The position numbers were made by a program, and so were the translations under genes. Below the pieces are notes generated by a model that had not been told where the DNA came from, made no database searches, and saw only the letters and a program-made list of their open reading frames with translations. Shown in pieces: positions 15,013-39,150 of a stretch of 64,000 nt of DNA. The first letter of the stretch is position 1. The number at the start of each line of letters is the position of its first letter. This DNA comes from an uncultured Woeseiaceae bacterium (GTDB lineage Bacteria > Pseudomonadota > Gammaproteobacteria > Steroidobacterales > Woeseiaceae), in assembly GCA_902517795.1 (NCBI GenBank), contig CABYDR010000001.1, positions 2,512 to 66,511 on the forward strand, in the 5' to 3' direction.

Positions 15013-15094
15013 TCAATTAATCTAACTTATTTAATATTCCAAAATCAATTATTAGATAATCAAACCAGATTTTACAATAACATTAGGAGGTAAA

Positions 15095-15787
15095 ATGGCA
15101 ACCATACTTGTTACAGGCGCAAATCGAGGTCTGGGTATTGAATTTGTTGAGCAATATATTAATGGGGGCAATGAAGTTATCGCAACCTACAGAAATGAAA
15201 ACAGCTCGATTGATTTAATTGAAATGGGTAATGAACGATCTAATTTAAAATTACTTCAGCTTGATGTCAGCTCAAACAAATCTCTCGATAGTTTTGCAGA
15301 AAATTTAGGCAACTCGCCGATAGATATTTTTATCAATAATGCTGGTGTCTATGGCCCAAGAAACAGTTCATTTGCTAATGTGGATGAAGAAAACTGGATA
15401 CCGGCAATAAAAATAAATGCTATTGCTCCAGTTCTTCTGACTCAATTAATTATCAAAAATATTAGGGCAGGAACTGATAAAAAACTGATCTATATAACTT
15501 CAAAAATGGGATCAATTGACGACAATAAAGGTGGTGGCGCTTATGTTTACCGTAGCTCAAAAACAGCACTTAACGCGGTCGTAAAGAGCCTATCGATAGA
15601 TTTAAAAAATGAGAACATTGCTGTTGCTTTGATTCATCCTGGTTGGGTAAAAACTGATATGGGTGGACCCAATGCACTTATTGACAAAGACACGAGCGTA
15701 AGAGGAATGACTGAAGTTATCTCTAATCTTGATATCTCATCAACTGGTAACTTTTTTAATTATGATGGAACAATCATTCCTTGGTGA
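15095..15787 (+). CDS. short-chain dehydrogenase/reductase (SDR) family oxidoreductase
   Basis: TGANRGLG cofactor motif, NNAG, and catalytic YRSSK (Y-x-x-x-K). Confidence 0.85.
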   Translation: MATILVTGANRGLGIEFVEQYINGGNEVIATYRNENSSIDLIEMGNERSNLKLLQLDVSSNKSLDSFAENLGNSPIDIFINNAGVYGPRNSSFANVDEENWIPAIKINAIAPVLLTQLIIKNIRAGTDKKLIYITSKMGSIDDNKGGGAYVYRSSKTALNAVVKSLSIDLKNENIAVALIHPGWVKTDMGGPNALIDKDTSVRGMTEVISNLDISSTGNFFNYDGTIIPW

Positions 15788-15823
15788 GTAACCTTAATAA
15801 TATTTTTTAGCCTAAGGCTTGAA

Positions 15824-16495
15824 TCATCTGGACTCATGTAGGCAGTCCACTCTAAATTTTGTTCCGAGGTGACCGACGTATTTGGCGCCATTGGCACAAT
15901 TGTAAGTGCCTTGTCCGTGTCGTTTGTAATCTTGGTGCTCACCGACGTATATGTCTCCATTGTTATATTTGTAAGTGCCTTGTCCGTGCTGTTTGTCATC
16001 TTGGTACTCACCGATGTATTTGTCTCCATCGGCATAAGTGTAAGTGCCTTGTCCGTGCTGTTTGTCATCTTGGTACTCACCGACGTATTGAATTCCACTA
16101 GCCCAAGTGTAAGTGCCTTGTCCGTGCTGTTTGCCATCATGGTACTCACCGACGTATTGGTTTCCACTAGCCCAAGTGAAAGTGCCTTGTCCGTGTCGTT
16201 TGCCATCTTGGTGCTCACCGATGTATTGGTCTCCATCGGCAAAAGTGAAAGTGCCTTGTCCGTGTCGTTTGTCATCTTGGTACTCACCGATGTATTGGTC
16301 TCCATTGGCCCAAGTGTAAGTGCCTTGTCCGTGTCGTTTGCCATCTTGGTACTCACCGACGTATTGACTTCCACTAGCCCAAGTGGAAGTGCCAACACAG
16401 TCATGCCACATTACGGATGGATCAGTAGGACAAGTTGTTTGTGCCTGGGAATTGATTGAGAATAAGAACGCTGTAATGAGGAGCAGTTTTTTCAT
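15824..16495 (-). CDS. secreted MORN-repeat protein (about 8 near-identical 23-aa repeats)
   Basis: Signal peptide MKKLLLITAFLFSINSQAQ followed by repeats of Y[VI]GEYQDGKRHGQGTYTWA.GDQ. This frame is preferred over the other ORFs across the repeat. Confidence 0.85.
   Translation of the reverse strand: MKKLLLITAFLFSINSQAQTTCPTDPSVMWHDCVGTSTWASGSQYVGEYQDGKRHGQGTYTWANGDQYIGEYQDDKRHGQGTFTFADGDQYIGEHQDGKRHGQGTFTWASGNQYVGEYHDGKQHGQGTYTWASGIQYVGEYQDDKQHGQGTYTYADGDKYIGEYQDDKQHGQGTYKYNNGDIYVGEHQDYKRHGQGTYNCANGAKYVGHLGTKFRVDCLHESR
15878..16392. repeat. 69-bp tandem repeat array (about 7 copies) inside the MORN gene
   Basis: The motif g[ta]aagtgccttgtccgtg recurs at 15902, 15971, 16040, 16109, 16178, 16247 and 16316, an exact 69-nt period. 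Confidence 0.9.
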
Positions 16496-16555
16496 GTGTT
16501 TAATTTATAACAAAATAGTTATTTTCTGCAAAAGATAATCCTAGTTAGCCTCGGA

Positions 16556-16612
16556 TGATGTCCGAGGCCGGAATCGAACTGGCACGTCCTTCCGAACAAC
16601 GGATTTTAAGTC
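16556..16612 (-). repeat. degenerate copy A of the 3' half of tRNA-Leu(UAA) (att-like remnant)
   Basis: tgatgtccgaggccggaatcgaactggcacgtccttccgaacaacggattttaagtc aligns with 27894-27950 with about 8 mismatches in 57 (by eye). The acceptor part is remodelled into a perfect 8-bp hairpin at 16548-16568. Confidence 0.7.
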
Positions 16613-16716
16613 ATTTACAGAGATAAATAATCTTGACTAATATTTAATTAGGATATTTTTCCAGTATTATATAATATATTTGTTAATAATTTTTATAACT
16701 ATTAGGAAAGAGACAT

Positions 16717-17127
16717 ATGAAATTAATAACAATACTTACGGCATTAATGATATTAATTATTAATGGTTGCGGTGGAAGCGCACCAACATTTGATGGAACC
16801 TCAGAAGAAACTGCTGAGTCATCAATGATGAAAATGTTCCCCGACATTGATTTTGATGATGATGGACCTTCAGAAGAAGCCATGAAAAATCTTCCACCAG
16901 CGTTAGAAACGTACATGTGCAAATCAATAGAGATTATGTTCTCAAATTTTGGGCAGAACGAAGAAGAATCTCTTTCAGAAGTTCGAGAGATCTTTAATGG
17001 AATGACAGCGAATGAAATGGAAGCTTATGGCATGGAAAATGATCTGATCGGATGCATAAGCGGAATGATGGAAGGGCTTAAAGAATTAGAAGAAGGGCTT
17101 GAAGAATTAGAAAATATGTTTCAATAA
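16717..17127 (+). CDS. small acidic lipoprotein
   Basis: Lipobox LIINGC after a hydrophobic N-terminus. The mature part is Glu/Asp/Met-rich. It is the only gene of cassette 1. Confidence 0.55.
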   Translation: MKLITILTALMILIINGCGGSAPTFDGTSEETAESSMMKMFPDIDFDDDGPSEEAMKNLPPALETYMCKSIEIMFSNFGQNEEESLSEVREIFNGMTANEMEAYGMENDLIGCISGMMEGLKELEEGLEELENMFQ

Positions 17128-17138
17128 TATTATCAATT

Positions 17139-17160
17139 ACTTATCGAGGTGCCCAAGACC
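17139..17160 (-). repeat. short remnant D of the tRNA-Leu 3' end plus flank
   Basis: acttatcgaggtgcccaagacc versus acttatcttggtgcccagggcc at 27887-27908. The 7-nt flank is identical and the tRNA part matches about 11 of 15. The match is short, so this is tentative. Confidence 0.4.
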
Positions 17161-17219
17161 TAACAATATAATTGCTCCTATAAATTAATAATTTAATTCA
17201 AAAAAATGGTGATAAATAA

Positions 17220-18191
17220 GTGCGTATTTTCAAATCAATAATTTTTCTAATTATATTTATATTCAGTATCTCTGGAAATTTCTCGTTAGCTGAAGACTAT
17301 TCAGATTCTGATATTACAAAAGTTGTCATGCTAGGATCAGGAAACCCATTCCCTGATCCAAAGAGATCAGGTCCATCTGTAGCTATTGTTGTTAATGGCG
17401 TTCCTTATTTATTTGATGCTGGTGCGGGAGTTTGGCAGGCAACTGGTGCAGCTACACCAAAATACGGAGGAACAATCAAAGCATTAGAAAGTGGTAATAT
17501 CTCAAAAGTGTTTATCACTCACTTACACTCCGATCATGTTGTTGGTCTACCAAGTTTAATACTTCTTCCCTGGGCACTTGGTCGTGAAGCTCCTCTTGAG
17601 GTATGGGGGCCTCCCGGAACTGAGCATATGATTAAGCATCTGGTAGAGGCATATAGAGAAGATGTAGGGTCAAGAAAATATGGTCTGGGTCAAGACAATG
17701 ATACTGGTTGGCGCGCTATAGGACATAATGTGCCAAAAGCCGGGTTAGTTTATCAAGATGAAAATGTAAAAATTGAAGCTTATCGGACCTTACATACTAC
17801 ATGGCCAATAACTTATGCGTATCGTGTTACCACCCCAGATAAAGTAGTGACCATTTCTGGGGATACAGTCAAGAACAAAGGAATCATTGAGGCAAGCAGA
17901 GGTACTGATATTTTAGTTCATGAAGTAGTTACTATCGAAGGTCAAGATACAGCAGGTTGGGCAAATGGTGGAAAGGAAGATCGTCATAATTTCGGCAATA
18001 TAATTGGCTTCTATCATGCAAATACTAAAGATCTAGCTGAAATTGCAAATGAAGCAAAGCCGAAGCTACTTGTTCTCTATCATGTGCAAAATTATACATC
18101 GCCGCTTCGACCCGAGGTTACAGTAGAAGAGATAAAGAAATATGGATATGACGGAAAAGTAATTCTTTCACAAGATCAAGATATATATTAA
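17220..18191 (+). CDS. secreted MBL-fold metallo-hydrolase
   Basis: Signal peptide and the metallo-beta-lactamase motif THLHSDH. GTG start. Confidence 0.8.
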   Translation: MRIFKSIIFLIIFIFSISGNFSLAEDYSDSDITKVVMLGSGNPFPDPKRSGPSVAIVVNGVPYLFDAGAGVWQATGAATPKYGGTIKALESGNISKVFITHLHSDHVVGLPSLILLPWALGREAPLEVWGPPGTEHMIKHLVEAYREDVGSRKYGLGQDNDTGWRAIGHNVPKAGLVYQDENVKIEAYRTLHTTWPITYAYRVTTPDKVVTISGDTVKNKGIIEASRGTDILVHEVVTIEGQDTAGWANGGKEDRHNFGNIIGFYHANTKDLAEIANEAKPKLLVLYHVQNYTSPLRPEVTVEEIKKYGYDGKVILSQDQDIY

Positions 18192-18225
18192 TACTGCTTT
18201 TTATTTGTTATATAAAATTTTATCG

Positions 18226-18283
18226 TGGTGCCCACGGCTAGACTCGAACCGGCAATATCCATTCGGACAACGGATTTTAAGTC
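18226..18283 (-). repeat. copy B of the 3' half of tRNA-Leu(UAA)
   Basis: tggtgcccacggctagactcgaaccggcaatatccattcggacaacggattttaagtc aligns with 27894-27950 with about 7 differences including 1 indel (by eye). Preceded by ttatc, as at the intact tRNA. Confidence 0.8.
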
Positions 18284-18286
18284 TTA

Positions 18287-19444
18287 CTACAAAATATTTT
18301 CGCTTGGTCTCTTCCGAAGTACTGCCCAAAACATAATTGACACAAAAACCATGCTGGTTGTGTAAGTCAAAAATACGATATGGCCGTAGTTATATACATA
18401 TCCTGCAACAGCAGAAGCTATTAACGAAGATAGTGAATAAATTGCAGGAATAAGAATAACAATTTTCCCATATCTATCTTCAGCGGCAATCGACGCAAAC
18501 ATATAAGCTAGTATAGCAGACCAACATGCTTGGAAAAGTACAGATAATACCCAGAACACAGATTCATTAAATATAGTAATCAAACCCACCATTACCAAAA
18601 TAAATATCAGCCCAATGGCTATGATCATACTATTTCGATTAATTCGGTTATAAACGAGAATAGGAAGAAAAGCGCCCAAGGTACCAATTCCAACAGCTGT
18701 TGATAGTGTTATTGCAATTGATTCAGTTGTGTAACCTGTATTAGTGGCAATGCGTTCATAGAATACCCAAAAGCCATTTAAACCTAAGTTAAAGATGAAT
18801 AAAGCTGCCATCGCCATAATGGCAGGACTTAATTGCTTAACATCAATTGCTTGGTTATTGTGCTGTGCTCCAATATCAATACTTTGTTTCCCAGTCAATG
18901 GAAAGGTGATTAATGCAACCGCAAGCACTACTGCCATGGCAAGCAACATGAATACGCCGGTAAGACCCCAAATAGGTGATATCCAGATAGGTACAACGTA
19001 AAGGCCAATCATCATCAATATAGATTGAAACAATTGAGAAAACCCAAAACCACGATCTGGGTTTTTGGCAGCGCCCAAGCAGGCCATTGAAATACAATAT
19101 AATATTCCAGTACCAATACCGGCTATGCCTAACGCTATTAGTAAAATTGCAAAACTAGTGGTAAATGCGGCAAAAATATAACCAAAAAATGCACATGCGC
19201 CACCAAACAATAATAATAATTTTCTATTGATCCGTCTGACCCAAAAACTGAGTAACAAACTGATAAGCACTTTAGCGCTCATGCCAGGGACCATTAACAT
19301 ACCAAGTTGCTGGTTACTGAAGCCACGATTGTCTGCAGCTGCACCAACAATAACGGGACTGATATTAAAAAAAAGTGCACTTAACGCAATAATTCCAGCA
19401 AAAGTTAGGATAGTCGTAAGTTGATTAACGTCTCTTCTTATCAT
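18287..19444 (-). CDS. MFS-type transporter
   Basis: 385 aa with about 12 hydrophobic helices in a 6+6 arrangement. Confidence 0.7.
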   Translation of the reverse strand: MIRRDVNQLTTILTFAGIIALSALFFNISPVIVGAAADNRGFSNQQLGMLMVPGMSAKVLISLLLSFWVRRINRKLLLLFGGACAFFGYIFAAFTTSFAILLIALGIAGIGTGILYCISMACLGAAKNPDRGFGFSQLFQSILMMIGLYVVPIWISPIWGLTGVFMLLAMAVVLAVALITFPLTGKQSIDIGAQHNNQAIDVKQLSPAIMAMAALFIFNLGLNGFWVFYERIATNTGYTTESIAITLSTAVGIGTLGAFLPILVYNRINRNSMIIAIGLIFILVMVGLITIFNESVFWVLSVLFQACWSAILAYMFASIAAEDRYGKIVILIPAIYSLSSLIASAVAGYVYNYGHIVFLTYTTSMVFVSIMFWAVLRKRPSENIL

Positions 19445-19451
19445 TATTTGG

Positions 19452-21083
19452 TTACCGCCAACACTGATCTAATTCATCCCAGCTATCTTGACGCAGATCT
19501 GTTTTCATATCTTTTAGCTGGTGTTTAGCAACTTTTTCTGATGGGGTATACGGAAAAGACTTAACGTATTCAAAATAACGTGGGATCTTAAACGGTGCGA
19601 GTCGTTGCTGACAATGAATAATAATATCTGCTGGAGATATTTGTTCAATTGTATAGCCTGCCGACAATAACACATAGATTTTTACCTCTTCATCACGCTT
19701 TTTATCGGGTACAGCTATTGCAGCCGCATCCTCGATACCTTGTTTAGAACGAATGGCAGTCTCAACCTCCAAAGCAGAGATATTTTCCATAGACCGACGA
19801 ATCATGTCTTTTAAGCGACCAACGATCGTATGATATCCAAGCTCATCCTTGATAAATAAATCTCCGGTTCTAAACCACCCATCAATAAAGATCTCTTTGT
19901 TAGCTTCGGGTTTCTTATAATAACCTTTAATGATGCCAGCACCTTTTATCCATAGCTCACCAGAGTTTCCTGACTCAACTTCGTTTCCATTATCATCGGC
20001 AATTTTTACCTCTCGAAAAGGTGCAGGTAATCCGCAACTATTTAGAGCTGAGTCAGTGTTAACAGTTTCTGGTACAAATAGTCCTGGACCGATCTCTGTC
20101 ATGCCGTAAGAATCTCTGGTTAAAACTTTAAATCGCTCTTCAACAAGACGTGTCATCTCTGCATTAAGAGCAAATCCTATAAATTTCTTAAGCGATGTAG
20201 CAGAATCTCGCGGTGATGGAGGCGCTTCAAGTAAAGGTGTTGGGAAATAGGCCAATTCGATCTGATGATTATCAATCCAGTCTAAAAATCGACTAACACT
20301 CATGCCTTTAGATACATGAACAGTCATCCCTGAAAATAATCCCATAATAAGCATATATTGATCGTCAATATAGAAAAAAGGAGCATCGGCTAATACTGAT
20401 TTAATGCCCTTGTTTCGAAGAGCAGCTACACAACCTATTATTATCCAGAATTTTTGTGATTGCATGCAGCCCTTTGGAAATCCTGTGGTACCGGACGTAT
20501 ACTGAATATTAAGAAGATCATCAGAATTTACTTGATAGTTATATTGAGCATCTTTGCTTCCGCGCAACAGAATGGAATTCCAGTTATTCTTTGTGTCTTT
20601 ATCAGTGACGATAATGATTGACTCATCGGTTAAAGCTTCTGGTTTTTTGCTCATCGCTTTTAGAGTTGATAAGAATTTATCCTCTATAACTACAAACTCA
20701 GCATCAGAATCATTAAGAACATAGTCTAACTCGGCGCTCGTGTATGCATGATTGACAGGAATCATCACAGCACCGATCACGGCTATTGCCAACCAGGATA
20801 CTGGGAACTCTATTCTATTACTCATAATAACAGCAACATGAGTTCCTTTTTTAATCCCTTTTTGCTGAAATCCATCCGCCAACTTATATACCAACACACG
20901 TAAATCAGCATAAGATATGGATTTGGCTTGTGGTTCCTGCTCAAAGAAGTTAATGGCTAATGCCGTTGGATAATGATCAGCCGCTTGATCAAGTAACTCT
21001 TGTATATTTTCAGGAAAATCAATAGTTTCTTCAATAAACTTTTTTTCTTTAAAGTATTTTTTAGTAGCGACTTCTATCTTCAT
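19452..21083 (-). CDS. acyl-CoA synthetase / AMP-dependent ligase
   Basis: AMP-binding motif YTSGTTGFPKG and the later GWFRTGD motif. Confidence 0.85.
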   Translation of the reverse strand: MKIEVATKKYFKEKKFIEETIDFPENIQELLDQAADHYPTALAINFFEQEPQAKSISYADLRVLVYKLADGFQQKGIKKGTHVAVIMSNRIEFPVSWLAIAVIGAVMIPVNHAYTSAELDYVLNDSDAEFVVIEDKFLSTLKAMSKKPEALTDESIIIVTDKDTKNNWNSILLRGSKDAQYNYQVNSDDLLNIQYTSGTTGFPKGCMQSQKFWIIIGCVAALRNKGIKSVLADAPFFYIDDQYMLIMGLFSGMTVHVSKGMSVSRFLDWIDNHQIELAYFPTPLLEAPPSPRDSATSLKKFIGFALNAEMTRLVEERFKVLTRDSYGMTEIGPGLFVPETVNTDSALNSCGLPAPFREVKIADDNGNEVESGNSGELWIKGAGIIKGYYKKPEANKEIFIDGWFRTGDLFIKDELGYHTIVGRLKDMIRRSMENISALEVETAIRSKQGIEDAAAIAVPDKKRDEEVKIYVLLSAGYTIEQISPADIIIHCQQRLAPFKIPRYFEYVKSFPYTPSEKVAKHQLKDMKTDLRQDSWDELDQCWR

Positions 21084-21086
21084 AGA

Positions 21087-21824
21087 TTATTTACCTTTGA
21101 TATGATCTATGCCTGATTTTGCCTCAGGTTCTTGATGGTACACCTCTAGCTGATGAGCATATAATTTGCGTGTTAAGCTAATGGCTTCTTTTAAACTCAT
21201 CTCTGGGCATTTTTGCAGGCATTCCATTTCTGTCTGAATCGCAATTAATGGATGTAAGGCGATCATATTTGCAATCTCTAATGCTCTTTCGAAAACTTTA
21301 TCATTCGAAACTACCTCATTAATTAATTGGTATTGCAATGCTTGGTCTGCGGTAATCTTCTCACCTGTGAGTGCAATCCAATTTGCCCACACACGGGGAA
21401 TTTGAAGAGATAAACGTGATGTACCACTGGCTCCTGCCATCCCATAAGCGATCTCAGGTAAGCCAAATCTTGCGCCTTTACCAGCTACTCTTATATCGGT
21501 AAGTAATGAAACATAAATCAAACCTTCGCCAATGCACCAACTATTTATCGCACCAATAATAGGTTTGTTTCGAGGCAATGAAAATATCATTTCTGTGATA
21601 TCTTCACCATCTGGATAAGCATCCCCTTCATTGAGATCATCTCCGGCACTAAAACACTTGCCTTCACTACCTTTCAGAATTCCGACTTTAATATTATCGT
21701 CATTCAAAAAGTCATTTAAATGAGAATATAATTGCTTATGCATAGCAAACGTCAAGACGTTAACTTTACCATTATCAATTGTAAATATTCCGATGTGTCC
21801 CTGTTTTTCATAAGTAATAGTCAT
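21087..21824 (-). CDS. enoyl-CoA hydratase/isomerase (crotonase) family protein
   Basis: Crotonase-fold pattern (FSAGDDL, GGAINSWCIGEG-type oxyanion segment, GLPEIAYGM). Confidence 0.85.
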   Translation of the reverse strand: MTITYEKQGHIGIFTIDNGKVNVLTFAMHKQLYSHLNDFLNDDNIKVGILKGSEGKCFSAGDDLNEGDAYPDGEDITEMIFSLPRNKPIIGAINSWCIGEGLIYVSLLTDIRVAGKGARFGLPEIAYGMAGASGTSRLSLQIPRVWANWIALTGEKITADQALQYQLINEVVSNDKVFERALEIANMIALHPLIAIQTEMECLQKCPEMSLKEAISLTRKLYAHQLEVYHQEPEAKSGIDHIKGK

Positions 21825-21855
21825 TAATGTTACCTAAAATTTATTTTAATAAGTG

Positions 21856-21885
21856 ATGGTTAAGTATGGTTAAGCATGGATTAAG
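21856..21885. repeat. three tandem 10-bp direct repeats (atggttaagt / atggttaagc / atggattaag)
   Basis: Read directly from the sequence. Starts 32 nt upstream of the enoyl-CoA hydratase start codon and ends 38 nt before tRNA fragment C. Confidence 0.6.
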
Positions 21886-21923
21886 AGTATAGTTATAGCT
21901 CTATTATTACCAATAACTTATCG

Positions 21924-21979
21924 TGGCGCCCGATGCCGGACTCGAACCGGCACGTCCTTTCAGACAACGGATTTTAAGA
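21924..21979 (-). repeat. copy C of the 3' half of tRNA-Leu(UAA)
   Basis: tggcgcccgatgccggactcgaaccggcacgtcctttcagacaacggattttaaga aligns with 27894-27949 with about 5 mismatches in 56 (by eye). Preceded by acttatc, as at the intact tRNA. Confidence 0.85.
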
Positions 21980-22118
21980 CAGTAGCCATAAAATAAGTAT
22001 TTAGACATATCTCACTATCTCTATCATTTCAAAGGAAATTATTTTATGTATAAAGCACCTATGCCTGTTATATAGTTATTGAGAATGTCTAAATATTAAT
22101 TAAAATAAGAATCTGATA

Positions 22119-23306
22119 ATGATTAAACTAATAATACTCACAATAGTAATATTTTTTGTGCAAATTAATACAACTCTTTCTCAAGAAGTTAGATGTGATA
22201 GAGAAATGAATATCACTTATTACAAAAATCCCAAAATATTACTAAATGAATTTTCATCATTTCCTGAACGTAAGTCACAAGTGGCTATAAATGCTTCAAA
22301 TAAAGCTGAAAAAATAGTAGATGAATACTGGAATCATATTGGACCCGAAAAACACCTACATGAACTAAATACTGTTTTGACTAAATACAGCATTATTACT
22401 GAAAATTTTGAAAAAAATGGAGAGTTTGAGTTTTTATTCAATAATAATGGCAAATTACAAGCCACTAATTTCGCAAACTGTAAAACAGAAATCCTTTATT
22501 GGGAATATCAATCACAACCATATAATGGAACATTCAGTATATACATAGGCTCCAAGGATACTAATGAATACCTCATAAGATTTGGGATTCAAGGCTCACA
22601 TTCACAAAATCATTACAGGCTCAACTATTATAAAAGAGGAAGTCAAAATTGCTACAACTCGATGAATCCAATCTGTCATAAACATCTAACTGAATTAAGA
22701 ATATTGGGATACGCAGATCTAGAATCAAATTTAAAATTTGATGAATTAAAAAATATTGTTAAAACCGAATTGGAAACAGCTAAAAAAATAACCGAAGAAG
22801 CATATGCTAAGCAATTAGCTCAAGAAAAAGCTGATAGAGATCGGGCTCAGAATGCAAAAGAAGCTAGAGTAAAGGCGGAAAGAGAGAGAATTGAAGCAGA
22901 AAAGGCGAAAAGATTGAGACTTATAAAAGAAAAAGAAGAATTTGATGGCTCTCCTTATGGTCAACTTTATAATTCATATTCATCATATTTGATGATTAGT
23001 GATTTATATGATGCTAGAAAGGAATTTGCAACTCCATATATTACACAAACAAAAATGTCTGAAGTAAAGAAGAAGATGAGAGAAATAGAGAACAAAATGA
23101 TATCTGAAAAAAAACTTGATACAGATATGATTTGGGCTAATGCTGAAAAAAGTTACCAAACTGAATTCTCAACTTCAATGGGTCTCATAAAATCTTCCGG
23201 CATCTATTCAAATGAAGCAAATTCAATGGCAAAAATACAATTAATAACGTTCGATGCAATTCATAAAGATGTTGTTGGATACAAATCAATTGAAAAGGAT
23301 TTTTAA
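22119..23306 (+). CDS. hypothetical secreted protein with central E/R/K-rich helix (module protein A)
   Basis: Signal peptide MIKLIILTIVIFFVQINTTLSQ. Charged segment AQEKADRDRAQNAKEARVKAERERIEAEKAKRLRLIKEKEE. No catalytic motif recognised. Confidence 0.6.
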   Translation: MIKLIILTIVIFFVQINTTLSQEVRCDREMNITYYKNPKILLNEFSSFPERKSQVAINASNKAEKIVDEYWNHIGPEKHLHELNTVLTKYSIITENFEKNGEFEFLFNNNGKLQATNFANCKTEILYWEYQSQPYNGTFSIYIGSKDTNEYLIRFGIQGSHSQNHYRLNYYKRGSQNCYNSMNPICHKHLTELRILGYADLESNLKFDELKNIVKTELETAKKITEEAYAKQLAQEKADRDRAQNAKEARVKAERERIEAEKAKRLRLIKEKEEFDGSPYGQLYNSYSSYLMISDLYDARKEFATPYITQTKMSEVKKKMREIENKMISEKKLDTDMIWANAEKSYQTEFSTSMGLIKSSGIYSNEANSMAKIQLITFDAIHKDVVGYKSIEKDF

Positions 23307-23371
23307 TAACTGATTTTTCTCCTCTAATGCTATTTACTTTCAAACGTATTGATTTTATTTTTCTAAAGTGG

Positions 23372-23480
23372 TTATAGCGATGCCCGGGTGCCAACACAGT
23401 TATGCCACTTTATGGATGTACCAGAAGGACAAGTTGTTTGAGCTTGAGCATTGATTGAGAATAAGAATGCTGTAATGAGG
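23372..23480 (-). pseudogene. 5'-truncated remnant of a MORN-repeat protein gene
   Basis: 23388-23480 aligns with 16389-16481 (signal peptide and N-terminus of the MORN gene) with about 11 mismatches in 93 (by eye). The start codon is missing and there is an in-frame TAA at 23372-23374. Confidence 0.7.
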
Positions 23481-23483
23481 GGT

Positions 23484-24104
23484 TCACTTAATAAGCTCTT
23501 TTGCAATGAAAGAAACTCTTAATACACCACTTTCTCTTTGAAATTGCTCGCCACCTATAGAGGCAATATAAGTCTTCCAAGCTGCATTTATACCATCAAA
23601 GAAAATAACATTTGACCTCCCTGCTTGGTTAATCTCCATCATTTCTCCAGCAATATTGACCGAAAGCAATTTTTTTATATAAAGCTCTACTGATTCCTTA
23701 CCACCAAGAAATATAACTCTATTAGAAGTAAAAATTAATTCGCCAAAATCAATACTCGTTAGAGCCTGTTTTTGTTTTCTTGAAAACTCGCCTATACGAT
23801 AACTAAGACCATCCATGACTCTGAGAGAAATACCTTGATATATTCCCTTTTGTTTAATATTTTTAAATTCTAATAATTGGACATCATCTAATTTCAAAAT
23901 AATTCTTTCTTGATCTTGGAGCCTTATTGACGAGTCTTGAATTGCAGCTTCCAAGACTAGATTTTCCAGCGCTTTTGCTTCCTCCTTGGAAATTCTTGTG
24001 ACGGGAATCTCTTTATTGATTTTAAATTCTGGTTTTTTGATAAGCTTAATTACAAAGAGAATTAATACCATAAACATCAATATTACAAAGATATCTAAAA
24101 TCAT
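23484..24104 (-). CDS. hypothetical membrane-anchored protein (module protein B)
   Basis: Strong SD (aaggagg, 5 nt before the ATG) and an N-terminal TM. The C-terminal beta-rich part (GELIFTSNRVIFLGG..MEINQAGRSNVIFF) is faintly reminiscent of bacterial PH-like domains. Confidence 0.6.
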   Translation of the reverse strand: MILDIFVILMFMVLILFVIKLIKKPEFKINKEIPVTRISKEEAKALENLVLEAAIQDSSIRLQDQERIILKLDDVQLLEFKNIKQKGIYQGISLRVMDGLSYRIGEFSRKQKQALTSIDFGELIFTSNRVIFLGGKESVELYIKKLLSVNIAGEMMEINQAGRSNVIFFDGINAAWKTYIASIGGEQFQRESGVLRVSFIAKELIK

Positions 24105-24146
24105 ATTATCCTCCTTGTAAGGTTAAATATACTGCCTATATTTTAT

Positions 24147-24515
24147 CTAGAGATTATCAAATAAATCGTCATTCTTATCCACCTTGGTAGACTCGTCGAT
24201 TAGCTTCGATGATGTGTCTTTAGTTGCTACTTTTTTCTCTGTAACTTCCTCTTTCTGAATATCAGGGCTCTCCTGTGTTTCAGTGTTATCTTTTTTCTTT
24301 ACAGGTGCTTGAGAGGATTTTGATATTTTTCTATAAATTAGCCGAATGATAACGAAAGGAACGTAAATCATTAAGAACACCATTATTATGGCTCCAATTA
24401 TTGCCAATGGTATTTCTAGAGGAGTCCCTTTTAAAAATCGGCCCGCGATGAAAGCTATTGCAAATAAAGCACCGAAAGATACATATAATATTTTCTTAGT
24501 AGACCAATTTTTCAT
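24147..24515 (-). CDS. hypothetical 2-TM protein with disordered Lys/Glu/Thr tail ending NDDLFDNL (module protein C)
   Basis: Its ATG overlaps the stop of the upstream gene (TAATG). Two hydrophobic helices are followed by an about 55-aa low-complexity tail. Confidence 0.6.
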   Translation of the reverse strand: MKNWSTKKILYVSFGALFAIAFIAGRFLKGTPLEIPLAIIGAIIMVFLMIYVPFVIIRLIYRKISKSSQAPVKKKDNTETQESPDIQKEEVTEKKVATKDTSSKLIDESTKVDKNDDLFDNL

Positions 24516-24955
24516 TATATATCATCGAATAAATTATCAACTTTTTTTTCATCTGCTGCTAAAGCTTTCTCTGTTTGAGTTTTTTTCGTTGCTGCTTCTG
24601 ATTTTTTAGTATTTTGTTTATTTACTTTTTTAGTTGGTGTTGGGGTTTCATCTACCATTATCATCATTAAAGCAATCACAAACATGACCCATCCAAGAAT
24701 GGTTAAATCTACGTTTGGCAGATCACCATGCACAATTTCCCCAAGAGACCAAATATTTAAAGCTGAAACGCCCCATCCGTCAAGAAGATAGGCGCTGATT
24801 AATCGCCATGCACCCCATACCAAAGCTAATAAAAATACTAAACCTAATAGAGCTTCTCTACCGTGTTTTCTTCCATACAAACTAGAAACCAATACTAATA
24901 ATGCAAGACTAAAAGGCCAATTTTCTTGAGCCCACTGTAAGGTTTCAGTTAGCAT
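24515..24955 (-). CDS. hypothetical 3-TM protein with Lys-rich tail ending VDNLFDDI (module protein D)
   Basis: The ORF track starts at 24967. I prefer the ATG at 24953-24955 because GGAGG (24961-24965) lies 5 nt upstream. Overlaps the end of the upstream gene by 11 nt. Confidence 0.6.
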   Translation of the reverse strand: MLTETLQWAQENWPFSLALLVLVSSLYGRKHGREALLGLVFLLALVWGAWRLISAYLLDGWGVSALNIWSLGEIVHGDLPNVDLTILGWVMFVIALMMIMVDETPTPTKKVNKQNTKKSEAATKKTQTEKALAADEKKVDNLFDDI

Positions 24956-26324
24956 ATTTACCTCCAAATTCGTTGAATAATTTATTGAGATTTTTTGAAT
25001 CTTTTGAGAGTTTTAAGCCTTCATTTTTAACTCTTTCCATTGCTTTTAACACTTTTTCGTCTTCATAATAACTTAACGCTTTCTCAAGATTGGCTAACCT
25101 CATTTCTAGGTTTTTATAGAGTGCCCCATAAAGCTTTTTATATCTACCAAGTGTCTTTTCATAATAACCATTTCCTTCTAAAGTTTGATTAACTTTTGGG
25201 TTATCATGTATATCAGCGTATGAATTCTCTACTCTATTCTTCAGTACTTTAGCATTACTCTCAGTTGATAGGATTATCGTAATTAAGCCTGGAGTTTTTT
25301 TCCAAATTACACTGCCAAGCGCTTGAGCCTCTTTAGCAAATTTCCCTTTACCAAACCAAGATGATTTGTGATTCTTATCTAAAGTTTCAAGATCTGAATT
25401 CATTTTATCAATCTGAGTTTTCATCGTTTTGCCAGTCTTTACTGCTTTGTCTATGGCTTTATCAAATAAAGCCATGACTTCTTTACACCCATCATCAAGT
25501 TCTTTTTTTTCTTTTGCTCTTTGCTTAGCTTCTTCTTCTTTCTTTTTTATATCAGCAGCAATCTCTGGGACAAGGGGAGCAACATTAGCCTCAATATATT
25601 TCGAGATTACCTCAGCATTTACTGGATCTTCAAAACCAGAAAAATCATCAAAACTAAGATTTTTGGGAAGCGAATCTTTTATAGACACTTCACACTTGCT
25701 TTTAAAAATTTTTATCATTGAATGATTAGCGATCTTAGAAGATGTTGCTACTTTCTTTAATTCACTCTCGTACAACAGATCAAAAGTGTCAAGAATGTGA
25801 ACCCCGACAGCTAATTTAAAAAGATTCTCTTCGAGAAAAGGAACGGTGACTTTTTTAAACTGTGAGCTTGTTGTAAGACCATTCTCATTGTTGTAAACAC
25901 GGGCTACTACTCTTAGATCGACCCCAAATAACTTCAAGGGAACGTCATGTTCTAAGAATCTTCCTTTTAAGATAAGAAGTTCTTTTTCATATTTTTCTTG
26001 TTCTTTTTTTTCTTGGGCAAGAAGCTTCTGACGTTCTTTTTCATCTGCAATTGATTTTCTTTCAGCTGCTTTTACTGCTGCTGCTGATGCTTTTTCACTT
26101 TCTCTTACCCTTTTGGCGTGTTCTCTAGCAGATCGTTTCCTAGATCGCTCAGCTTCTCTTTCTCGCCTCTTTCGAGCTGTTTCAGCCGCTCTTGCTTCTT
26201 TCCTTCGAGCAGTTTCAGCTGCTCTCTTTCGTTTTCGCGCCTGCACAGCACTTTTTTTTACCGCATTACTCGCAGCGGCTCCCCAATCCACTTTGCCTTT
26301 TTTCCAAACTTTTTTATATGCCAT
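24945..26324 (-). CDS. hypothetical soluble protein with extremely basic Arg/Lys/Ala/Glu N-terminal region (module protein E)
   Basis: 459 aa with no signal peptide or TM. Residues about 25-115 are R/K/E/A-rich with an internal AAETAR repeat. The remainder is predicted helical. No catalytic motif recognised. Confidence 0.6.
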   Translation of the reverse strand: MAYKKVWKKGKVDWGAAASNAVKKSAVQARKRKRAAETARRKEARAAETARKRREREAERSRKRSAREHAKRVRESEKASAAAVKAAERKSIADEKERQKLLAQEKKEQEKYEKELLILKGRFLEHDVPLKLFGVDLRVVARVYNNENGLTTSSQFKKVTVPFLEENLFKLAVGVHILDTFDLLYESELKKVATSSKIANHSMIKIFKSKCEVSIKDSLPKNLSFDDFSGFEDPVNAEVISKYIEANVAPLVPEIAADIKKKEEEAKQRAKEKKELDDGCKEVMALFDKAIDKAVKTGKTMKTQIDKMNSDLETLDKNHKSSWFGKGKFAKEAQALGSVIWKKTPGLITIILSTESNAKVLKNRVENSYADIHDNPKVNQTLEGNGYYEKTLGRYKKLYGALYKNLEMRLANLEKALSYYEDEKVLKAMERVKNEGLKLSKDSKNLNKLFNEFGGKYAN

Positions 26325-26403
26325 AATTAACTGTTAGTATTGATTGAATATATTTTAATAATATAATTATTTTATTATCATAATTTATCATAATAATAAA
26401 ATC

Positions 26404-27663
26404 ATGAATAAAACGTTATTGCAATTAATCAGACCCCACCTGTTGTTATTGACTCTATGTTTAAGCGCCTATGTATCTGCTGAATCATATGACACAAATG
26501 AATATATTGGTTTAGATAATGCAATCTGCAAAAACGCAAGCAAACATCTAACTCTAGAAACCTCAGGCTTCTTTGAATACATTGGTGCTGGTGAATCAAA
26601 AATATTTGAATGCGGGAAGCATAGTGACGAACCATGCAGAAAAGATTCTGAGTTAATTTGTAGAAATACACATAAAAAATACATTCTAGATAGATCTGAA
26701 GCTCTTCTAATTGGCGCTAATAAATATACTGATAACACAAAAAAAATAAAAAACCGAAAAAAATTAGAGCGAGCAATCAAAAAGCAAACCAAATTAAATG
26801 AAAATTGGAAAAATTCAAACGATATTCTTTCACTGATCGGCTCTTTAGAGAGGGAAGTTATGCTTACTGCCTCTTTATTGCCCTCCGAGACTTATTCTCA
26901 AATTAACAATGAGCTTAAAGTTCAACATGATCAAATTCGACAGGAAATCCTTGAGCAACAGAGAATCGCAAGAGAAGCAAGCTTGAAAAAACAAAGGCAA
27001 AAAGCAGCTAAACAAGCAATAGAAACTCGTCAACAACGGGAGATTGATGAGCAGATACAAATCATGATGTATCTTTTAGGGATACTTGCGATTGTAGTTT
27101 TAGCTGGAACACTTACAAACAAATGGATATTTTTTGACAGTGAACAAGATTTTTTTATGACCCTAGGTTTATTAGCTTCTATTACGACCTGTTTCTTTAT
27201 GATTGAAGAATATGATTACAAACAAAACGTTACTGTTTCAGGAGATCTATTTTATTGGTCTATAACCAGTGTTTCTGCCCTGCTTTCAATATGGTTAATA
27301 TTTAAAACATACATGACTTCAATAAAAGGAAATGGCTTCTTTGTAGGAACTTTTATTTATTTATTTAAAGTGGCATTTAGCATTATTCTGGTAATGTTCA
27401 TTGTTGCTAAAATTGCTGACATTACAAGCAATAAAGATGGAAGGACAAGGGCAAATCGTGCTCCAGCTTTGGCAATTCTTGCTTTAATTGCGATTTTTTG
27501 GAAACCAATAAAATGGCTTCTTATAAATGGTGATAGAGTGAGAGAAAAAAAAGCAGCTAATAGAATGAAAACTCAAGTTAAAACCGCACCGCCTGTGAGT
27601 GAAACTAAAGCTTCTAATCATAAAAACCTAGACGCCAGCGATGATATGTTTAGCGATATTTAA
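26404..27663 (+). CDS. hypothetical polytopic membrane protein with Cys-containing N-terminal exodomain, charged helix, about 5 TM and a tail ending SDDMFSDI (module protein F)
   Basis: Signal peptide, five Cys in the mature exodomain, charged segment EQQRIAREASLKKQRQKAAKQAIETRQQRE, then hydrophobic helices. Divergent from protein E across a 79-bp AT-rich spacer. Confidence 0.6.
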   Translation: MNKTLLQLIRPHLLLLTLCLSAYVSAESYDTNEYIGLDNAICKNASKHLTLETSGFFEYIGAGESKIFECGKHSDEPCRKDSELICRNTHKKYILDRSEALLIGANKYTDNTKKIKNRKKLERAIKKQTKLNENWKNSNDILSLIGSLEREVMLTASLLPSETYSQINNELKVQHDQIRQEILEQQRIAREASLKKQRQKAAKQAIETRQQREIDEQIQIMMYLLGILAIVVLAGTLTNKWIFFDSEQDFFMTLGLLASITTCFFMIEEYDYKQNVTVSGDLFYWSITSVSALLSIWLIFKTYMTSIKGNGFFVGTFIYLFKVAFSIILVMFIVAKIADITSNKDGRTRANRAPALAILALIAIFWKPIKWLLINGDRVREKKAANRMKTQVKTAPPVSETKASNHKNLDASDDMFSDI

Positions 27664-27893
27664 TTTCCATTGATTTGAAGGTATTTTTGTAACTTGACTA
27701 ATGAATTTTCGGTTTTGATGTCATTAGAAATAATCTTACGTGAATTAATAAAATAACATAAGTATTATGGAATATTCATAAAAACACTAAAAAGTTGCCT
27801 AAATTTTGCCTAAAATCACAAAAAAACCCCTTCCCTAATCTTCCAAAGAAAATCAACAAAGAGGTTTAATTTAATCAAATCAACTACTTATCT

Positions 27894-27980
27894 TGGTGCC
27901 CAGGGCCGGACTCGAACCGGCACGTCCTTTCGGACAACGGATTTTAAGTCCGTAGCGTCTACCAATTCCGCCACCCGGGC
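27894..27980 (-). tRNA. leuZ: tRNA-Leu (anticodon UAA)
   Basis: The reverse complement GCCCGGGTGGCGGAATTGGTAGACGCTACGGACTTAAAATCCGT...GGTTCGAGTCCGGCCCTGGGCACCA has a 7-bp acceptor stem, a long variable arm, a CTTAAAA anticodon loop and an encoded CCA. Confidence 0.9.
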
Positions 27981-27994
27981 CTAGGAAAGTTGAT

Positions 27995-28068
27995 TGGAGG
28001 CTAGGGTCGGAATCGAACCGGCGTCCGCGGCTTTGCAGGCCGCTGCATAACCACTCTGCCACCTAGCC
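27995..28068 (-). tRNA. cysT: tRNA-Cys (anticodon GCA)
   Basis: The reverse complement is GGCTAGGTGGCAGAGTGGTTATGCAGCGGCCTGCAAAGCCGCGGACGCCGGTTCGATTCCGACCCTAGCCTCCA. It folds as a cloverleaf with a CTGCAAA anticodon loop. Confidence 0.9.
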
Positions 28069-28140
28069 TGAACAACCAATAACTTCATATAGACTATGTA
28101 AAGATTATGACATTACATATATATCGAAGTATACATCGCT

Positions 28141-29430
28141 ATGCTTTATAATCAATCTCAAAAAATGATAACAATGTTAAATTTTATGAAAAAAATTAAA
28201 CCTATTGCATTATTAATGTATATATTTTCCTCAGTTTCAATCGCTGAAGACTCTCTTGATATTCAATTCTCAGATATATCGATAAAGACACCTGCTGGAA
28301 GCATGTCACCTCACCTGTCTACAAGTAAATCTAATATCACGATTTTGAATTGGCTAGAGCCAACTGATGATGGGCATAGAATACAGTTTTCTAGATTTGT
28401 TTCTGGCTGGACAGAACCATCGACAGTAACAAATGGAAATGATTGGTTTATTAACTGGGCTGATTTCCCTTCAGTCATTAATTTTAATCAAAATCAATAT
28501 GCAGCTCACTGGCTAAAAAAGAGCGGTGAATCAACATACGCTTATGATACTTATATTTCTATATCGAAAAATAATGGAAAATCCTGGTCAAAACCAATAA
28601 AAGCTCATGAAGATAAAACTCAAACAGAGCATGGCTTTCTCTCTTTTTATGAGTATAAAAATGAACTTGGATTTATATATCTAGACGGCAGAAAAATGGC
28701 AAATAAAGCTACACACGATAAAAACCATTCATCAATGTCGCTAAGATCAGGTTCTATCGATAGAAATTTGAAATTAAATAATACACACAATATTGATGGT
28801 TTAGTCTGTGAATGCTGTCAGACAGATATCACGATGACAGACAGGGGTCCAATCGGAGTATATCGCGACCGATCGACAGAAGAATATAGAGATATATATA
28901 TAACTAAATTAGAAAATGAGAGCTGGACTGAAGGTAAGCCATTACATCTAGATAACTGGAAAATTAACGGGTGCCCTGTAAATGGACCTGTAATAACGGG
29001 AAATAACAATGAGATTACAGTTGCCTGGTATACAAGATCTGGTGGAAAATCTAATATAAAGGTTGCCAAATCATTTGATTATGGTGAAACATTTAACGAG
29101 CCACTGCTCATCGGAACAAATGAGACAGTTGGTCATATAAGCATGACTAGCGATAACAAGAGAAATACTTGGTTGTTATGGCAAAAAACAGCAAAAAAAG
29201 GATTGGTCGAGCTCGTTTTAACAAGAATTGAACCCGACACAAATCAAATTATGCACAAAATTATTGAAGAAGCTGGAAAAAGCCCGAGATTCAGCTTTCC
29301 ACAGATTATTAGAAATGGTGAAACGATAATTCTAGCTTATACCACTGTGATTAATGATTCTCGTGAAACAAGAGGTAATAACAAGAAAACCTCAATTAAA
29401 TCAATATCTTTTAATACTAATCTATACTAG
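28141..29430 (+). CDS. secreted BNR/Asp-box repeat protein (sialidase-like beta-propeller superfamily)
   Basis: Asp-box-like motifs SKNNGKSW and SFDYGETF. The real start is probably the ATG at 28186 (MKKIKPIALLMYIFSSVSIAED signal peptide). Confidence 0.6.
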   Translation: MLYNQSQKMITMLNFMKKIKPIALLMYIFSSVSIAEDSLDIQFSDISIKTPAGSMSPHLSTSKSNITILNWLEPTDDGHRIQFSRFVSGWTEPSTVTNGNDWFINWADFPSVINFNQNQYAAHWLKKSGESTYAYDTYISISKNNGKSWSKPIKAHEDKTQTEHGFLSFYEYKNELGFIYLDGRKMANKATHDKNHSSMSLRSGSIDRNLKLNNTHNIDGLVCECCQTDITMTDRGPIGVYRDRSTEEYRDIYITKLENESWTEGKPLHLDNWKINGCPVNGPVITGNNNEITVAWYTRSGGKSNIKVAKSFDYGETFNEPLLIGTNETVGHISMTSDNKRNTWLLWQKTAKKGLVELVLTRIEPDTNQIMHKIIEEAGKSPRFSFPQIIRNGETIILAYTTVINDSRETRGNNKKTSIKSISFNTNLY

Positions 29431-29434
29431 ATTA

Positions 29435-29749
29435 TTATTTAATTTTTAATTTTGGTGCGTTAGTCATTATGCTTTTTATGCCTCTGTTCATTGAAGCTTT
29501 GTCCGCGTAACTTTGACTTGTCGCAATAACCTTATTATTTGCCGCTCTAACATTAAATGACCACTTTCCTGCTCTATTTTGCTTGGTATCAAATGAATCT
29601 TTACTTGCAGAGTTCATTGCTAGTGATTTAATGCCTTTCATGCAACCCGATCTTGAGGCATACCCTTGACTGGCACAGATTATCTGACCATTTCTTGCTC
29701 TGAGTCTGAATCTGGACTTTCCAGATCTGTCTTTATAAATTTCAAACAT
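29435..29749 (-). CDS. yegP: YegP-family protein (two DUF1508 repeats)
   Basis: Two tandem repeats of the pattern F.L.A.NG..I..SQ.Y.S......GI.S (FRLRARNGQIICASQGYASRSGCMKGIKS and FNVRAANNKVIATSQSYADKASMNRGIKS). Confidence 0.75.
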   Translation of the reverse strand: MFEIYKDRSGKSRFRLRARNGQIICASQGYASRSGCMKGIKSLAMNSASKDSFDTKQNRAGKWSFNVRAANNKVIATSQSYADKASMNRGIKSIMTNAPKLKIK

Positions 29750-29925
29750 TTTTTACTCCTATGTGCATAAATATAAAATGATATACTAACAAAAATAATT
29801 ACAAATAAAATTTAAAAAAAAATATTTTTAGGATTGGATATCTTTGCAATTAGTTGTATAGTATTTATCTTAAATCAACAACTAAACATTCAAATTATCC
29901 AAGACTCATGGGGAATAGAGAAAAA

Positions 29926-30336: not shown

Positions 30337-30390
30337 AATCAATTTAATAAAATTATTTAATTAATACAAATAAGTAACTGATAAATAGAG

Positions 30391-31248: not shown

Positions 31249-31336
31249 ATATGATGAGTATTAATACAATAATAATAACAAGGGCAATTATGTCAACTAT
31301 GCGTTGCTCTTGCTCTAGTTCGAAACAACTTTAAAT

Positions 31337-32140: not shown

Positions 32141-32145
32141 ATAAT

Positions 32146-35642: not shown

Positions 35643-35683
35643 GCTGTTTACCCAAAGCTTGATATTGAGGTTTGATGGATTGT

Positions 35684-35709
35684 GAAGGTCGGGAATAAGC
35701 CCGACCTTT
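35684..35709 (-). terminator. stem-loop between proteorhodopsin and crtI (possible partial terminator or RNA-stability element)
   Basis: A 9-10 bp perfect stem (aaggtcggg / cccgacctt) with a 6-nt loop, starting 26 nt after the PR stop codon. No U-tract follows on the transcript, so termination efficiency is uncertain. Confidence 0.4.
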
Positions 35710-35734
35710 CACGAATCCGATTAACTCAGATCAA

Positions 35735-38401: not shown

Positions 38402-38408
38402 CTTTATT

Positions 38409-39149: not shown

Positions 39150-39150
39150 T

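Follow-up and report, generated by a model that had tools for sequence, protein, structure and literature searches.

This study concerns a 64,000-nt stretch of DNA (the window) from an uncultured Woeseiaceae bacterium (assembly GCA_902517795.1, contig CABYDR010000001.1, positions 2,512 to 66,511 of the forward strand), and within it an array of gene cassettes beside the tRNA-Leu(UAA) gene. The host is an uncultured, proteorhodopsin-bearing marine gammaproteobacterium, perhaps SAR86-like. An original prediction, made from the sequence alone, described 16556-27980 as a tandem array of four integrase-less cassettes delimited by diverged copies of the 3' part of this tRNA. Using ARAGORN and Rfam, four minus-strand tRNA genes were identified in the window: Leu(taa) (27894-27980), Cys (27995-28068), Gly (36733-36808) and Lys (61495-61569). 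The tRNA-Leu gene, its partial copies and the arm of a phage's attachment site (attP) lying next to it are as follows.

27894-27980, minus strand: intact tRNA-Leu(UAA), found by ARAGORN and Rfam, the only intact tRNA-Leu in the window.
27894-27953, minus strand: attachment (att) core O, the 3' 60 nt of tRNA-Leu from the anticodon stem to CCA.
27752-27893, minus strand: remnant of an attP arm termed P'-alpha, 142 nt directly behind the intact tRNA (nhmmer E 1e-60).
21924-21979, minus strand: copy A, a partial tRNA-Leu (att scar), then about 24 nt of P'-alpha-type flank.
18226-18283, minus strand: copy B, a partial tRNA-Leu (att scar) with a 1-nt insertion and a broken T-stem.
17105-17160, minus strand: remnant D, made up of ~16 nt from the very end of the tRNA and ~28-40 nt of P'-alpha arm, with the 5' part deleted.
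16556-16612, minus strand: copy C, a partial tRNA-Leu (att scar), then the 'delta' leader.

The partial copies aligned significantly in formal searches (self-BLAST, nhmmer). Using blastn-short with the tRNA against the window, copy A was recovered at 21935-21978 (97.7% over 44 nt, E 6e-18), copy C at 16566-16612 (91.5% over 47 nt, E 1e-12) and copy B at 18220-18283 (87.5% over 64 nt, E 9e-11). When each window tRNA was compared with the window by short-word BLAST, tRNA-Leu alone yielded partial copies and tRNA-Gly, tRNA-Cys and tRNA-Lys yielded none. An nhmmer att profile built on 35 distinct metagenomic copies identified 21925-21980 (E 2e-18), 16556-16612 (E 4e-17) and 18226-18285 (E 3e-14). 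It produced no other window match better than E 0.006, the value for the T-arm of the neighbouring tRNA-Cys. The three co-oriented copies predicted at 21924-21979, 18226-18283 and 16556-16612 are thus upheld by both programs (nhmmer E 3e-14 to 2e-18). A short remnant had been predicted at 17139-17160. Alone it was not significant (E 0.3); once the profile included the flank it reached E 5e-5 and extended to 17105-17160. Remnant D also matched the viral contig L086 by blastn (E 1e-5) and is kept in L171, L172 and L174, where L-numbers denote the metagenome, viral (IMG/VR) or genome contigs that were compared with the window.

The three long copies are co-oriented with tRNA-Leu, lack its 5' half and extend to the CCA end. 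Their starts agree to 2-5 nt, and all lie in the 5' strand of the anticodon stem. The array has the marks of a tRNA-anchored island: it starts at the 3' end of tRNA-Leu (27894) and carries direct repeats of that end, three copies and one remnant. Global identity to the 60-nt block was 88.3% for copy A, 83.6% for copy B and 83.3% for copy C. The earlier estimate by eye of 86-91% was close, although the computed range over the block is 83.3-88.3%. Values of 83-88% are within the neutral divergence range of the flanking DNA and, with the broken T-stem of copy B, are as expected for unselected scars. Judged by their divergence (12-17%) and the broken stem of copy B, the scars in the window look old. 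The junction at the copy B site is far better preserved, nearly intact, in L106, where a copy likewise lies between the transporter (MFS) and hydrolase (MBL) genes listed below. GATAAGT (acttatc on the plus strand) comes after the intact tRNA and also after copy A and remnant D, is partial after copy B and is absent after copy C. The original prediction had placed this flank at copy C, remnant D and, in part, copy B. The first 24-40 nt of the P'-alpha-type arm are kept by copy A and remnant D, less is kept by copy B and none by copy C. A few arrays in other contigs contain near-full-length diverged tRNA-Leu copies (L096:122-226 and L140:3344-3446, ~86-88% identity) that include part of the Leu-Cys spacer, which suggests that some events duplicated or imported a whole tRNA, beyond its 3' part.

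IMG/VR was scanned using a 41-nt stretch of the repeat, which generated five viral contigs (L084-L088). None has an intact tRNA, and in all of them the 60-nt block is flanked by conserved arms. In total 13 contigs from IMG/VR or metagenomes, 11 without duplicate records, contain the block and no intact tRNA. Core O is 98% identical to the attP of L084-L088. An attP together with an integrase gene was found in L084-L088, L092, L129, L138, L145, L193 and L194, and also in L170. In the attP contigs a tyrosine integrase gene (370-413 aa, PF00589 E 1e-20) begins ~155 nt downstream of the block. The proposal that the repeat is an att-like site therefore holds, since the block is the same as the attP core in phage contigs that carry an integrase. 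A recombinase associated with this att sequence was found in these contigs and not in the window.

The integrase associated with P'-alpha arms (alpha) has as gene neighbours a CI-like repressor, AAA_24, a Cas4-like exonuclease, a Prim-Pol/helicase (AAA_25), a DNA methyltransferase, RusA, HNH and the small terminase (TerS), a neighbourhood of the kind usual in a temperate phage. In L193 the att site lies between the late genes and int. No relative of the alpha integrase above 28% identity was found among deposited phage genomes. The window itself retains a piece of such a phage. From 27752 to 27953, comprising the 60-nt core and 142 nt of arm, it is 86-88% identical over 202 nt to the attP of L084-L088. 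The homology ends ~13 nt short of the position of the int start codon in the phages, and beyond it lies the 3' end of a convergent cargo gene and no integrase gene. Fold prediction places a long hairpin followed by a T-run (a U-run in RNA) at 27824-27867; this hairpin is likely a terminator that the element would have supplied for the rebuilt tRNA. The remnant also contains the 9-nt sequence TTTAGGCAA twice in direct orientation (27795-27803 and 27806-27814), and the two are putative arm-type integrase sites. The sequence of these paired repeats varies among arm variants while their spacing is constant.

L170, a T7-like podophage whose genes run lysozyme, core, small open reading frame (ORF), 301-aa integrase, RNA polymerase and T7-type single-stranded DNA-binding protein (SSB), has as its attP a second arm family, gamma. 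A third, distant integrase family is encoded by an element behind the intact tRNA-Leu in L132. At least three integrase families therefore use the tRNA-Leu(UAA) site. Two core alleles are told apart by polymorphisms, GAGTCCGGCCCC versus GATTCCGGCTC[CT]. In L131 and L164 the T-arm and acceptor strand of the rebuilt tRNA carry the polymorphisms of the phage core allele, which places the exchange point 5' of the T-arm. The attP of L170 (L170:6245-6330) has a variable arm, GTTGAGATAACTCTCGTGCC, that is unlike the host tRNA and is the same variant as a scar in L140 (~1-70); integration of L170 would thus alter the variable arm of the rebuilt tRNA-Leu. The junction pattern of another arm family, P'beta, had no match in viral contigs. 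When the viral contigs (IMG/VR) were searched with the acyl-CoA synthetase, 459-aa and MBL proteins, no relatives of the window cassettes were found.

Between the scars the array consists of the following modules.

23481-27706, mixed strands: five-gene cargo core, recurring as a unit in L113, L121 and L171-L176.
26404-27663, plus strand: core ORF, 419 aa, signal peptide intact.
24945-26324, minus strand: core ORF, 459 aa.
24515-24967, minus strand: core ORF, 150 aa.
24147-24515, minus strand: core ORF, 122 aa.
23484-24104, minus strand: core ORF, 206 aa.
23388-23480, minus strand: 93-nt fossil of the 5' end of a MORN gene, the trace of an earlier junction inside the array.
21980-23387, plus strand: module of a 395-aa gene (22119-23306) for a secreted or coiled-coil protein, with an arm beside copy A (21980-22045).
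18284-21923, minus strand: cassette 2, with the three genes that follow (Pfam).
21087-21824, minus strand: enoyl-CoA hydratase of cassette 2 (Pfam).
19452-21083, minus strand: AMP-binding acyl-CoA synthetase of cassette 2 (Pfam).
18287-19444, minus strand: MFS transporter of cassette 2 (Pfam).
17161-18225, plus strand: MBL-fold hydrolase cassette, ORF 17220-18191 with a signal peptide (Pfam Lactamase_B, Lactamase_B_2).
16613-17104, plus strand: small lipoprotein cassette, with a 136-aa ORF (16717-17127) that has a lipobox and overlaps the remnant D flank.
15824-16555, minus strand: 'delta' leader and MORN-repeat gene, another recurrent module.

The predicted cargo (a lipoprotein, an MBL hydrolase, an MFS transporter with acyl-CoA synthetase and enoyl-CoA hydratase, and six unknown ORFs) was recovered using Pfam and the lipobox. 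Its division into four cassettes was not, as the array comprises at least six modules. The interval 22.0-27.9 kb, taken earlier for one cassette and the youngest, is a composite of the phage-arm remnant, the five-gene core, the MORN fossil and the separate 395-aa gene. The fossil (95.7% identical to L137:2717-2809 and 88% to the window MORN gene at 16389-16481) indicates that the interval was assembled from several pieces, and relatives that are 96% identical have other cassettes on the tRNA side of the core. The youngest trace in the array is the phage arm behind the tRNA. The arm beside copy A in the 395-aa module is 81% identical to L090:2374-2496 and L137:1056-1178, and the 395-aa gene is absent wherever else the five-gene core occurs (L113, L121, L171-L176).

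The products of the five-gene core are mostly membrane or coiled-coil proteins. The six ORFs in 22119-27663, which are the 395-aa gene and the core, had no family match in Pfam, and the core had no match in Pfam, PHROGs, PADLOC or PDB sequence searches. An AlphaFold model of the 459-aa protein (pLDDT 87.7) consists of long helices and had no Foldseek match better than E 0.29. The core membrane proteins share a C-terminal peptide, D-[DN]-[LM]-F-[DS]-[DN]-[IL] (..DDLFDNL, ..VDNLFDDI, ..SDDMFSDI), that is retained in modules just 54-62% identical (window 23484-27663; L171, L187, L190) and has the look of a docking motif by which they would all bind a single partner. The core family forms 32 clusters, from marine metagenomes only.

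Several of the smaller modules have relatives elsewhere. The secreted MBL protein has relatives at least 90% identical (ORF 88.9% at the nucleotide level) beside tRNA-Asn in L179-L186, where the neighbours are the unrelated core genes CSD, PPIase and polysaccharide genes. Precomputed Pfam annotation assigns these relatives to PF23023 (Anti-Pycsar Apyc1), while our own scan of the window protein gave Lactamase_B and Lactamase_B_2 only. The lipoprotein cassette is present in L171-L174 and absent in L140 and L097. In L126 the delta leader stands immediately behind the intact tRNA and is followed by a different secreted-protein gene; the delta leader and MORN module is not necessarily native flank. 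The MORN gene (15824-16495) and copy C are missing in L097. This gene consists of tandem 69-nt units whose number differs from that in the 95%-identical L171 and L172. Long ORFs at 15760-16404 and 15869-16459 that overlap it on other frames or the other strand most probably arise as a side effect of the repeats.

The prediction that the array has no integrase, transposase or excisionase was supported, as no recombinase was identified in it by Pfam, PHROGs or PADLOC. Pfam identified none in the other ORFs of the window, with a few short ORFs (~70-230 aa) not scanned, and tblastn of three integrase families plus a serine recombinase against the window gave no match. No gap between genes of the array exceeds 294 nt, which is too short to hide a recombinase gene. 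The array is therefore now immobile unless an integrase comes from outside. No replication module (primase, helicase, polymerase) was found in the array; Prim-Pol/AAA_25 genes were found only in the alpha phage contigs.

To compare relatives, metagenomes were scanned using a 36-nt core query, which generated 81 stretches (L089-L168), all compared with the window proteins, tRNAs and DNA; further contigs were added through exact-protein look-ups. Flank types are cited only from examples checked by hand; the regular-expression classification confuses MBL and delta flanks. Among contigs that share the side with tRNA-Cys, the BNR-like gene and the proteorhodopsin-carotenoid genes, at least eight different sequences lie directly behind the intact tRNA-Leu.

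Window: phage arm and five-gene core.
L159: MBL gene, 91-95% identical in nucleotides, with all of 18284-27893 absent.
L090 and L155: gamma-type arms.
L097 and L167: DUF6090-like gene.
MED-G80 (L002): TetR-like gene, on a contig that ends 700 nt behind the tRNA.
L126: delta leader and secreted-protein gene.
L104, and L101 with L151: two more types.

Whole cassettes differ between the window and its close relatives (L159, L090, L097, L113, L150, L171-L175). The MBL cassette also follows various other arms (L090, L096, L112, L117). Cassette 2 is a unit bounded at att copies in L150 (94.6% nucleotide identity). Its distal neighbour is the MBL cassette in the window and L106, a phage arm in L150, the five-gene core in L113 and a 409-aa gene in L173 (four neighbours). 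Its proximal neighbour is the 395-aa gene in the window, a TetR cassette in L150 and an acyltransferase cassette in L173. In L106 and L173 it has an internal deletion (18346-20868 missing). The five-gene core (nucleotide identity 91.9% in L113, 76-79% in L121 and 96.5% in L171-L176) has different neighbours each time. In L121 it has att copies on both sides and no 395-aa gene, in L113 it is distal to cassette 2, and in the 96%-identical L171-L175 it is fused directly to the MBL cassette (junction 18233|23448), with RidA-like, 405-aa and 409-aa genes, the deleted cassette 2 and an acyltransferase on its tRNA side. Presence, absence and order of cassettes thus differ among related contigs, and the identical block is not carried by all of them. 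Independent contigs bridge most window junctions: L001 from the tRNA to the 419-aa gene, L171-L174 from the SDR gene to the MBL gene and across the five-gene core, and L150 and L106 across cassette 2 with its att copies. One contig, L126, was considered as an empty attB (intact tRNA with a copy C-type flank) and rejected, as translation showed that the delta flank leads secreted-protein genes.

Taken together, the locus is very probably a tRNA-Leu(UAA)-anchored, additive flexible genomic island, built by serial site-specific integration through phage-type tyrosine integrases and then decayed. Serial integration is supported by the common boundary of the copies, the attP-integrase partners, the arm remnant behind the tRNA and the variation among relatives, and further by the significance of the copies and their confinement to the array. 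The original prediction of repeated integration at one tRNA, in the manner of tycheposons, agrees with the attP core match and with the 142-nt arm that lacks its integrase. We infer the exact crossover site, the order of events and the deletion steps as follows. Temperate phages and related elements would bring an attP that copies the 3' part of the tRNA, anticodon stem included, and their tyrosine integrases would recombine it with the tRNA gene. The core site is probably the anticodon stem, whose strands form a perfect inverted repeat on either side of the 7-nt loop. At each integration a functional tRNA would be rebuilt from the element's copy, with the alpha arm adding a terminator-like hairpin, and the displaced 3' part and older insertions would move farther from the tRNA. 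Deletions would then strip integrase, replication and phage genes, leaving cargo between decaying att scars.

Four observations weigh against this history. No integrase pseudogene or remnant was detectable in the window, so that we infer the loss of mobility genes and do not see it. Some junctions have no att copy (five-gene core and 395-aa gene in the window, MBL and five-gene core in relatives), which suggests that illegitimate deletions have blurred the record. A verified empty site was not found among the compared contigs. Finally, integrase-less cassettes recur in identical form in different contexts, for which independent decay in each lineage is not an easy explanation.

One rival reading is that the cassettes are still mobile units. 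A phage, infecting or resident, might supply the integrase by which integrase-less cargo with both att arms is cut out and inserted again in trans, much like the cis/trans mobilisation of cis-mobilisable elements (CIMEs) or an integron with an outside recombinase. Such mobility, which would complement serial integration and decay, is possible though rather doubtful. It is suggested by integrase-less cassettes with matched arms, namely MFS between P'alpha and Palpha (L131, L164), a CsgG cluster between P'alpha and Palpha (L146), cargo between P'gamma and Pgamma (nuclease/peptidase in L099, Schlafen-type helicase in L149) and a 369-aa gene between P'beta and Pbeta (L090, L137, L093). Cargo occupies the int position at 14 or more loci (at least 600 nt past the P'alpha arm), integrase-less P'alpha arms share the extension ATAATACTTATGTTATTTTA ahead of at least four different cargoes, and integrase-less cassette 2 is bounded at att copies in four contexts. 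However, no circular junction or excision product was seen, no window cassette was found in IMG/VR, P'beta was not found in viral contigs and arm matching is not universal (L114). In the window, cassette 2 and the MBL and lipoprotein cassettes do lie between att copies and have no integration or transfer genes, but the copies are 12-17% diverged and the arms mostly truncated, so that this array in particular looks fossil; cassettes with intact arms are those of L131, L146, L099 and L149. RecA-dependent homologous recombination could also shuffle cassettes, the 60-nt att copies with their 100-200-nt arms serving as portable homology. Circles would pop out and in, unequal exchange with incoming DNA and deletions would follow, and integrases would matter for the original entries only. 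Many metagenome att copies share 95-100% identity across their 60 nt, with the arms the homology reaches ~200 nt, conserved leaders precede varied cargo, and some deletion endpoints fall outside att sites (L106 and L173, 18346-20868 missing; L171, junction 18233|23448). Yet 60 nt is a short RecA substrate, and in most contexts cassette boundaries are exactly at att core edges, which homologous exchange alone does not predict. We consider this explanation unlikely, while noting that the present data cannot separate it from integrase action in trans; the integrase-less matched-arm cassettes and the four contexts of cassette 2 fit both equally well.

It is very improbable that no integration occurred at all and that the copies are decayed tandem tRNA duplicates or the joints of an assembly chimera formed at tRNA-like repeats. 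The near-full-length tRNA-Leu pseudogenes in L096 and L140 would suit duplication, and a chimera might be suspected because single-cell contig L001 (GCA_902522445.1, CABYVZ010000001.1, 209.5 kb), which is 100% identical to window 26600-39430, ends at 26600, inside the 419-aa gene and ~1.3 kb from the tRNA. Every window copy nevertheless lacks the 5' half and shares one boundary, and the same block is an attP adjoining integrases. The 419-aa ORF is continuous across 26600 with its signal peptide intact, and most window junctions are bridged by independent contigs (L001, L171-L174, L150, L106).

Variable genome islands are known to be built by serial integration and decay at a tRNA, and the present case adds a new lineage; no earlier description of such an island in the host lineage was found in the literature. 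The additive flexible genomic island fGI-2 of 'Ca. Methylopumilus' is marked by repeats of the tRNA-Lys 3' end (PMC10872708). Islands of this kind share with ours the start at a tRNA gene, recurring direct repeats of its 3' part, size and content that vary among close relatives, and cargo of mostly transport, metabolic or unknown genes. The repeat here is 57-60 nt (anticodon stem to end) versus 20 nt, and here the integrating elements and attP arms were identified in viromes and metagenomes. In the tycheposon islands of Prochlorococcus, tandem elements are split by partial tRNAs and newer elements push older ones inward, and the same paper (Hackl et al.) mentions related elements in Gammaproteobacteria (bioRxiv 10.1101/2020.12.28.424599). 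Both systems have tRNA integration, tandem stacking, degenerate remnants and scattered partial tRNAs, and the window array likewise is flanked by a full and a partial tRNA. The window, however, has neither the hallmark integrase nor the replication module, so that its cassettes are not tycheposons by defining gene content, and the integrases at the present site belong to phage genomes (TerS, lysis, tail; or T7-like).

CIMEs at streptococcal tRNA genes have lost integration and transfer genes, keep attL and attR and accrete in tandem (PMC5704250). The scheme of decay and accretion is the same, but CIMEs have their origin in conjugative or mobilisable elements and, after accretion, are transferred by conjugation, whereas here the functional partners are phages and any mobilisation would be by them. 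T7-like marine phages with integrases that target tRNA-Leu include cyanophage P-SSP7 and the HTVC019P-type pelagiphages (bioRxiv 10.1101/410191; PMC3861242). L170 shares with them a T7-like genome and a tyrosine integrase adjoining a partial tRNA-Leu; it differs in host lineage, and its att arms also flank phage-free host cassettes. Like integrons, the array has ordered, promoter-poor, recombinase-less cassettes split by a recurring recombination site, in an order that varies among strains. Unlike integrons, it has no intI, attI or attC hairpin sites, the window repeats being tRNA fragments, and as candidate recombinases it has phage integrases of the lambda type whose genes lie elsewhere.

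The island may extend farther distally. Genes to the left of 16556 have homologues that are carried on cassettes elsewhere; nhmmer found no surviving att scar in the window left of that position. For the beta-lactamase-family gene at 11763-12995, the homologues in L098 and L124 begin precisely at the int position behind P'-alpha arms, and another lies behind a P'-alpha arm in L161. The left flank (6928-8082, 9090-9572, 11763-12995, 13003-15787) includes two beta-lactamase-family genes and a second MORN protein, which are paralogues of island-type genes, and in L097 and L124 the SDR gene has another position. From these gene relationships the flexible region may reach back to ~11.7 kb. On the other side of the tRNA-Leu gene, the Gly-Cys-Leu tRNA cluster, which is normally compact, is split by a proteorhodopsin gene (35735-36436) and carotenoid genes with blh (31337-35642) between tRNA-Gly and tRNA-Cys/Leu (window 28141-36808), a layout conserved in MED-G80 and L159. 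A BNR/sialidase-like protein (28141-29430) is encoded beside tRNA-Cys. In a scan of a genome collection its closest relative was in one gammaproteobacterial metagenome-assembled genome (79%), and its other relatives were mostly in Bacteroidota and Acidobacteriota (22-40% identity). Among metagenome relatives this gene is 37-93% identical while its neighbours exceed 90%, a pattern that suggests lateral acquisition or replacement.

For annotation, ~11-15 kb of the window is flexible, horizontally acquired DNA. More broadly, the exchange of flexible genes in abundant, genome-streamlined ocean bacteria is only partly understood, and its best-described system is that of the Prochlorococcus tycheposons. 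The same logic of island building is seen here in a proteorhodopsin-bearing gammaproteobacterial lineage, with att scars tied to concrete phage attP-integrase partners and one tRNA site common to three or more integrase families. The phage source is known for no fewer than two arm families, alpha in temperate phages (TerS, tail or lysis genes) and gamma in T7-like phages, and the arm-flanked integrase-less cassettes are a well-defined set for a direct test of mobilisation in trans. Tentatively, the tRNA-Leu site may act as an integron-like exchange platform with a borrowed recombinase: each time such a phage expressed its integrase, cassettes would be cut out, reordered and inserted again in trans. 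If true, this would be a route by which flexible genes spread through streamlined marine populations with few resident mobile elements.

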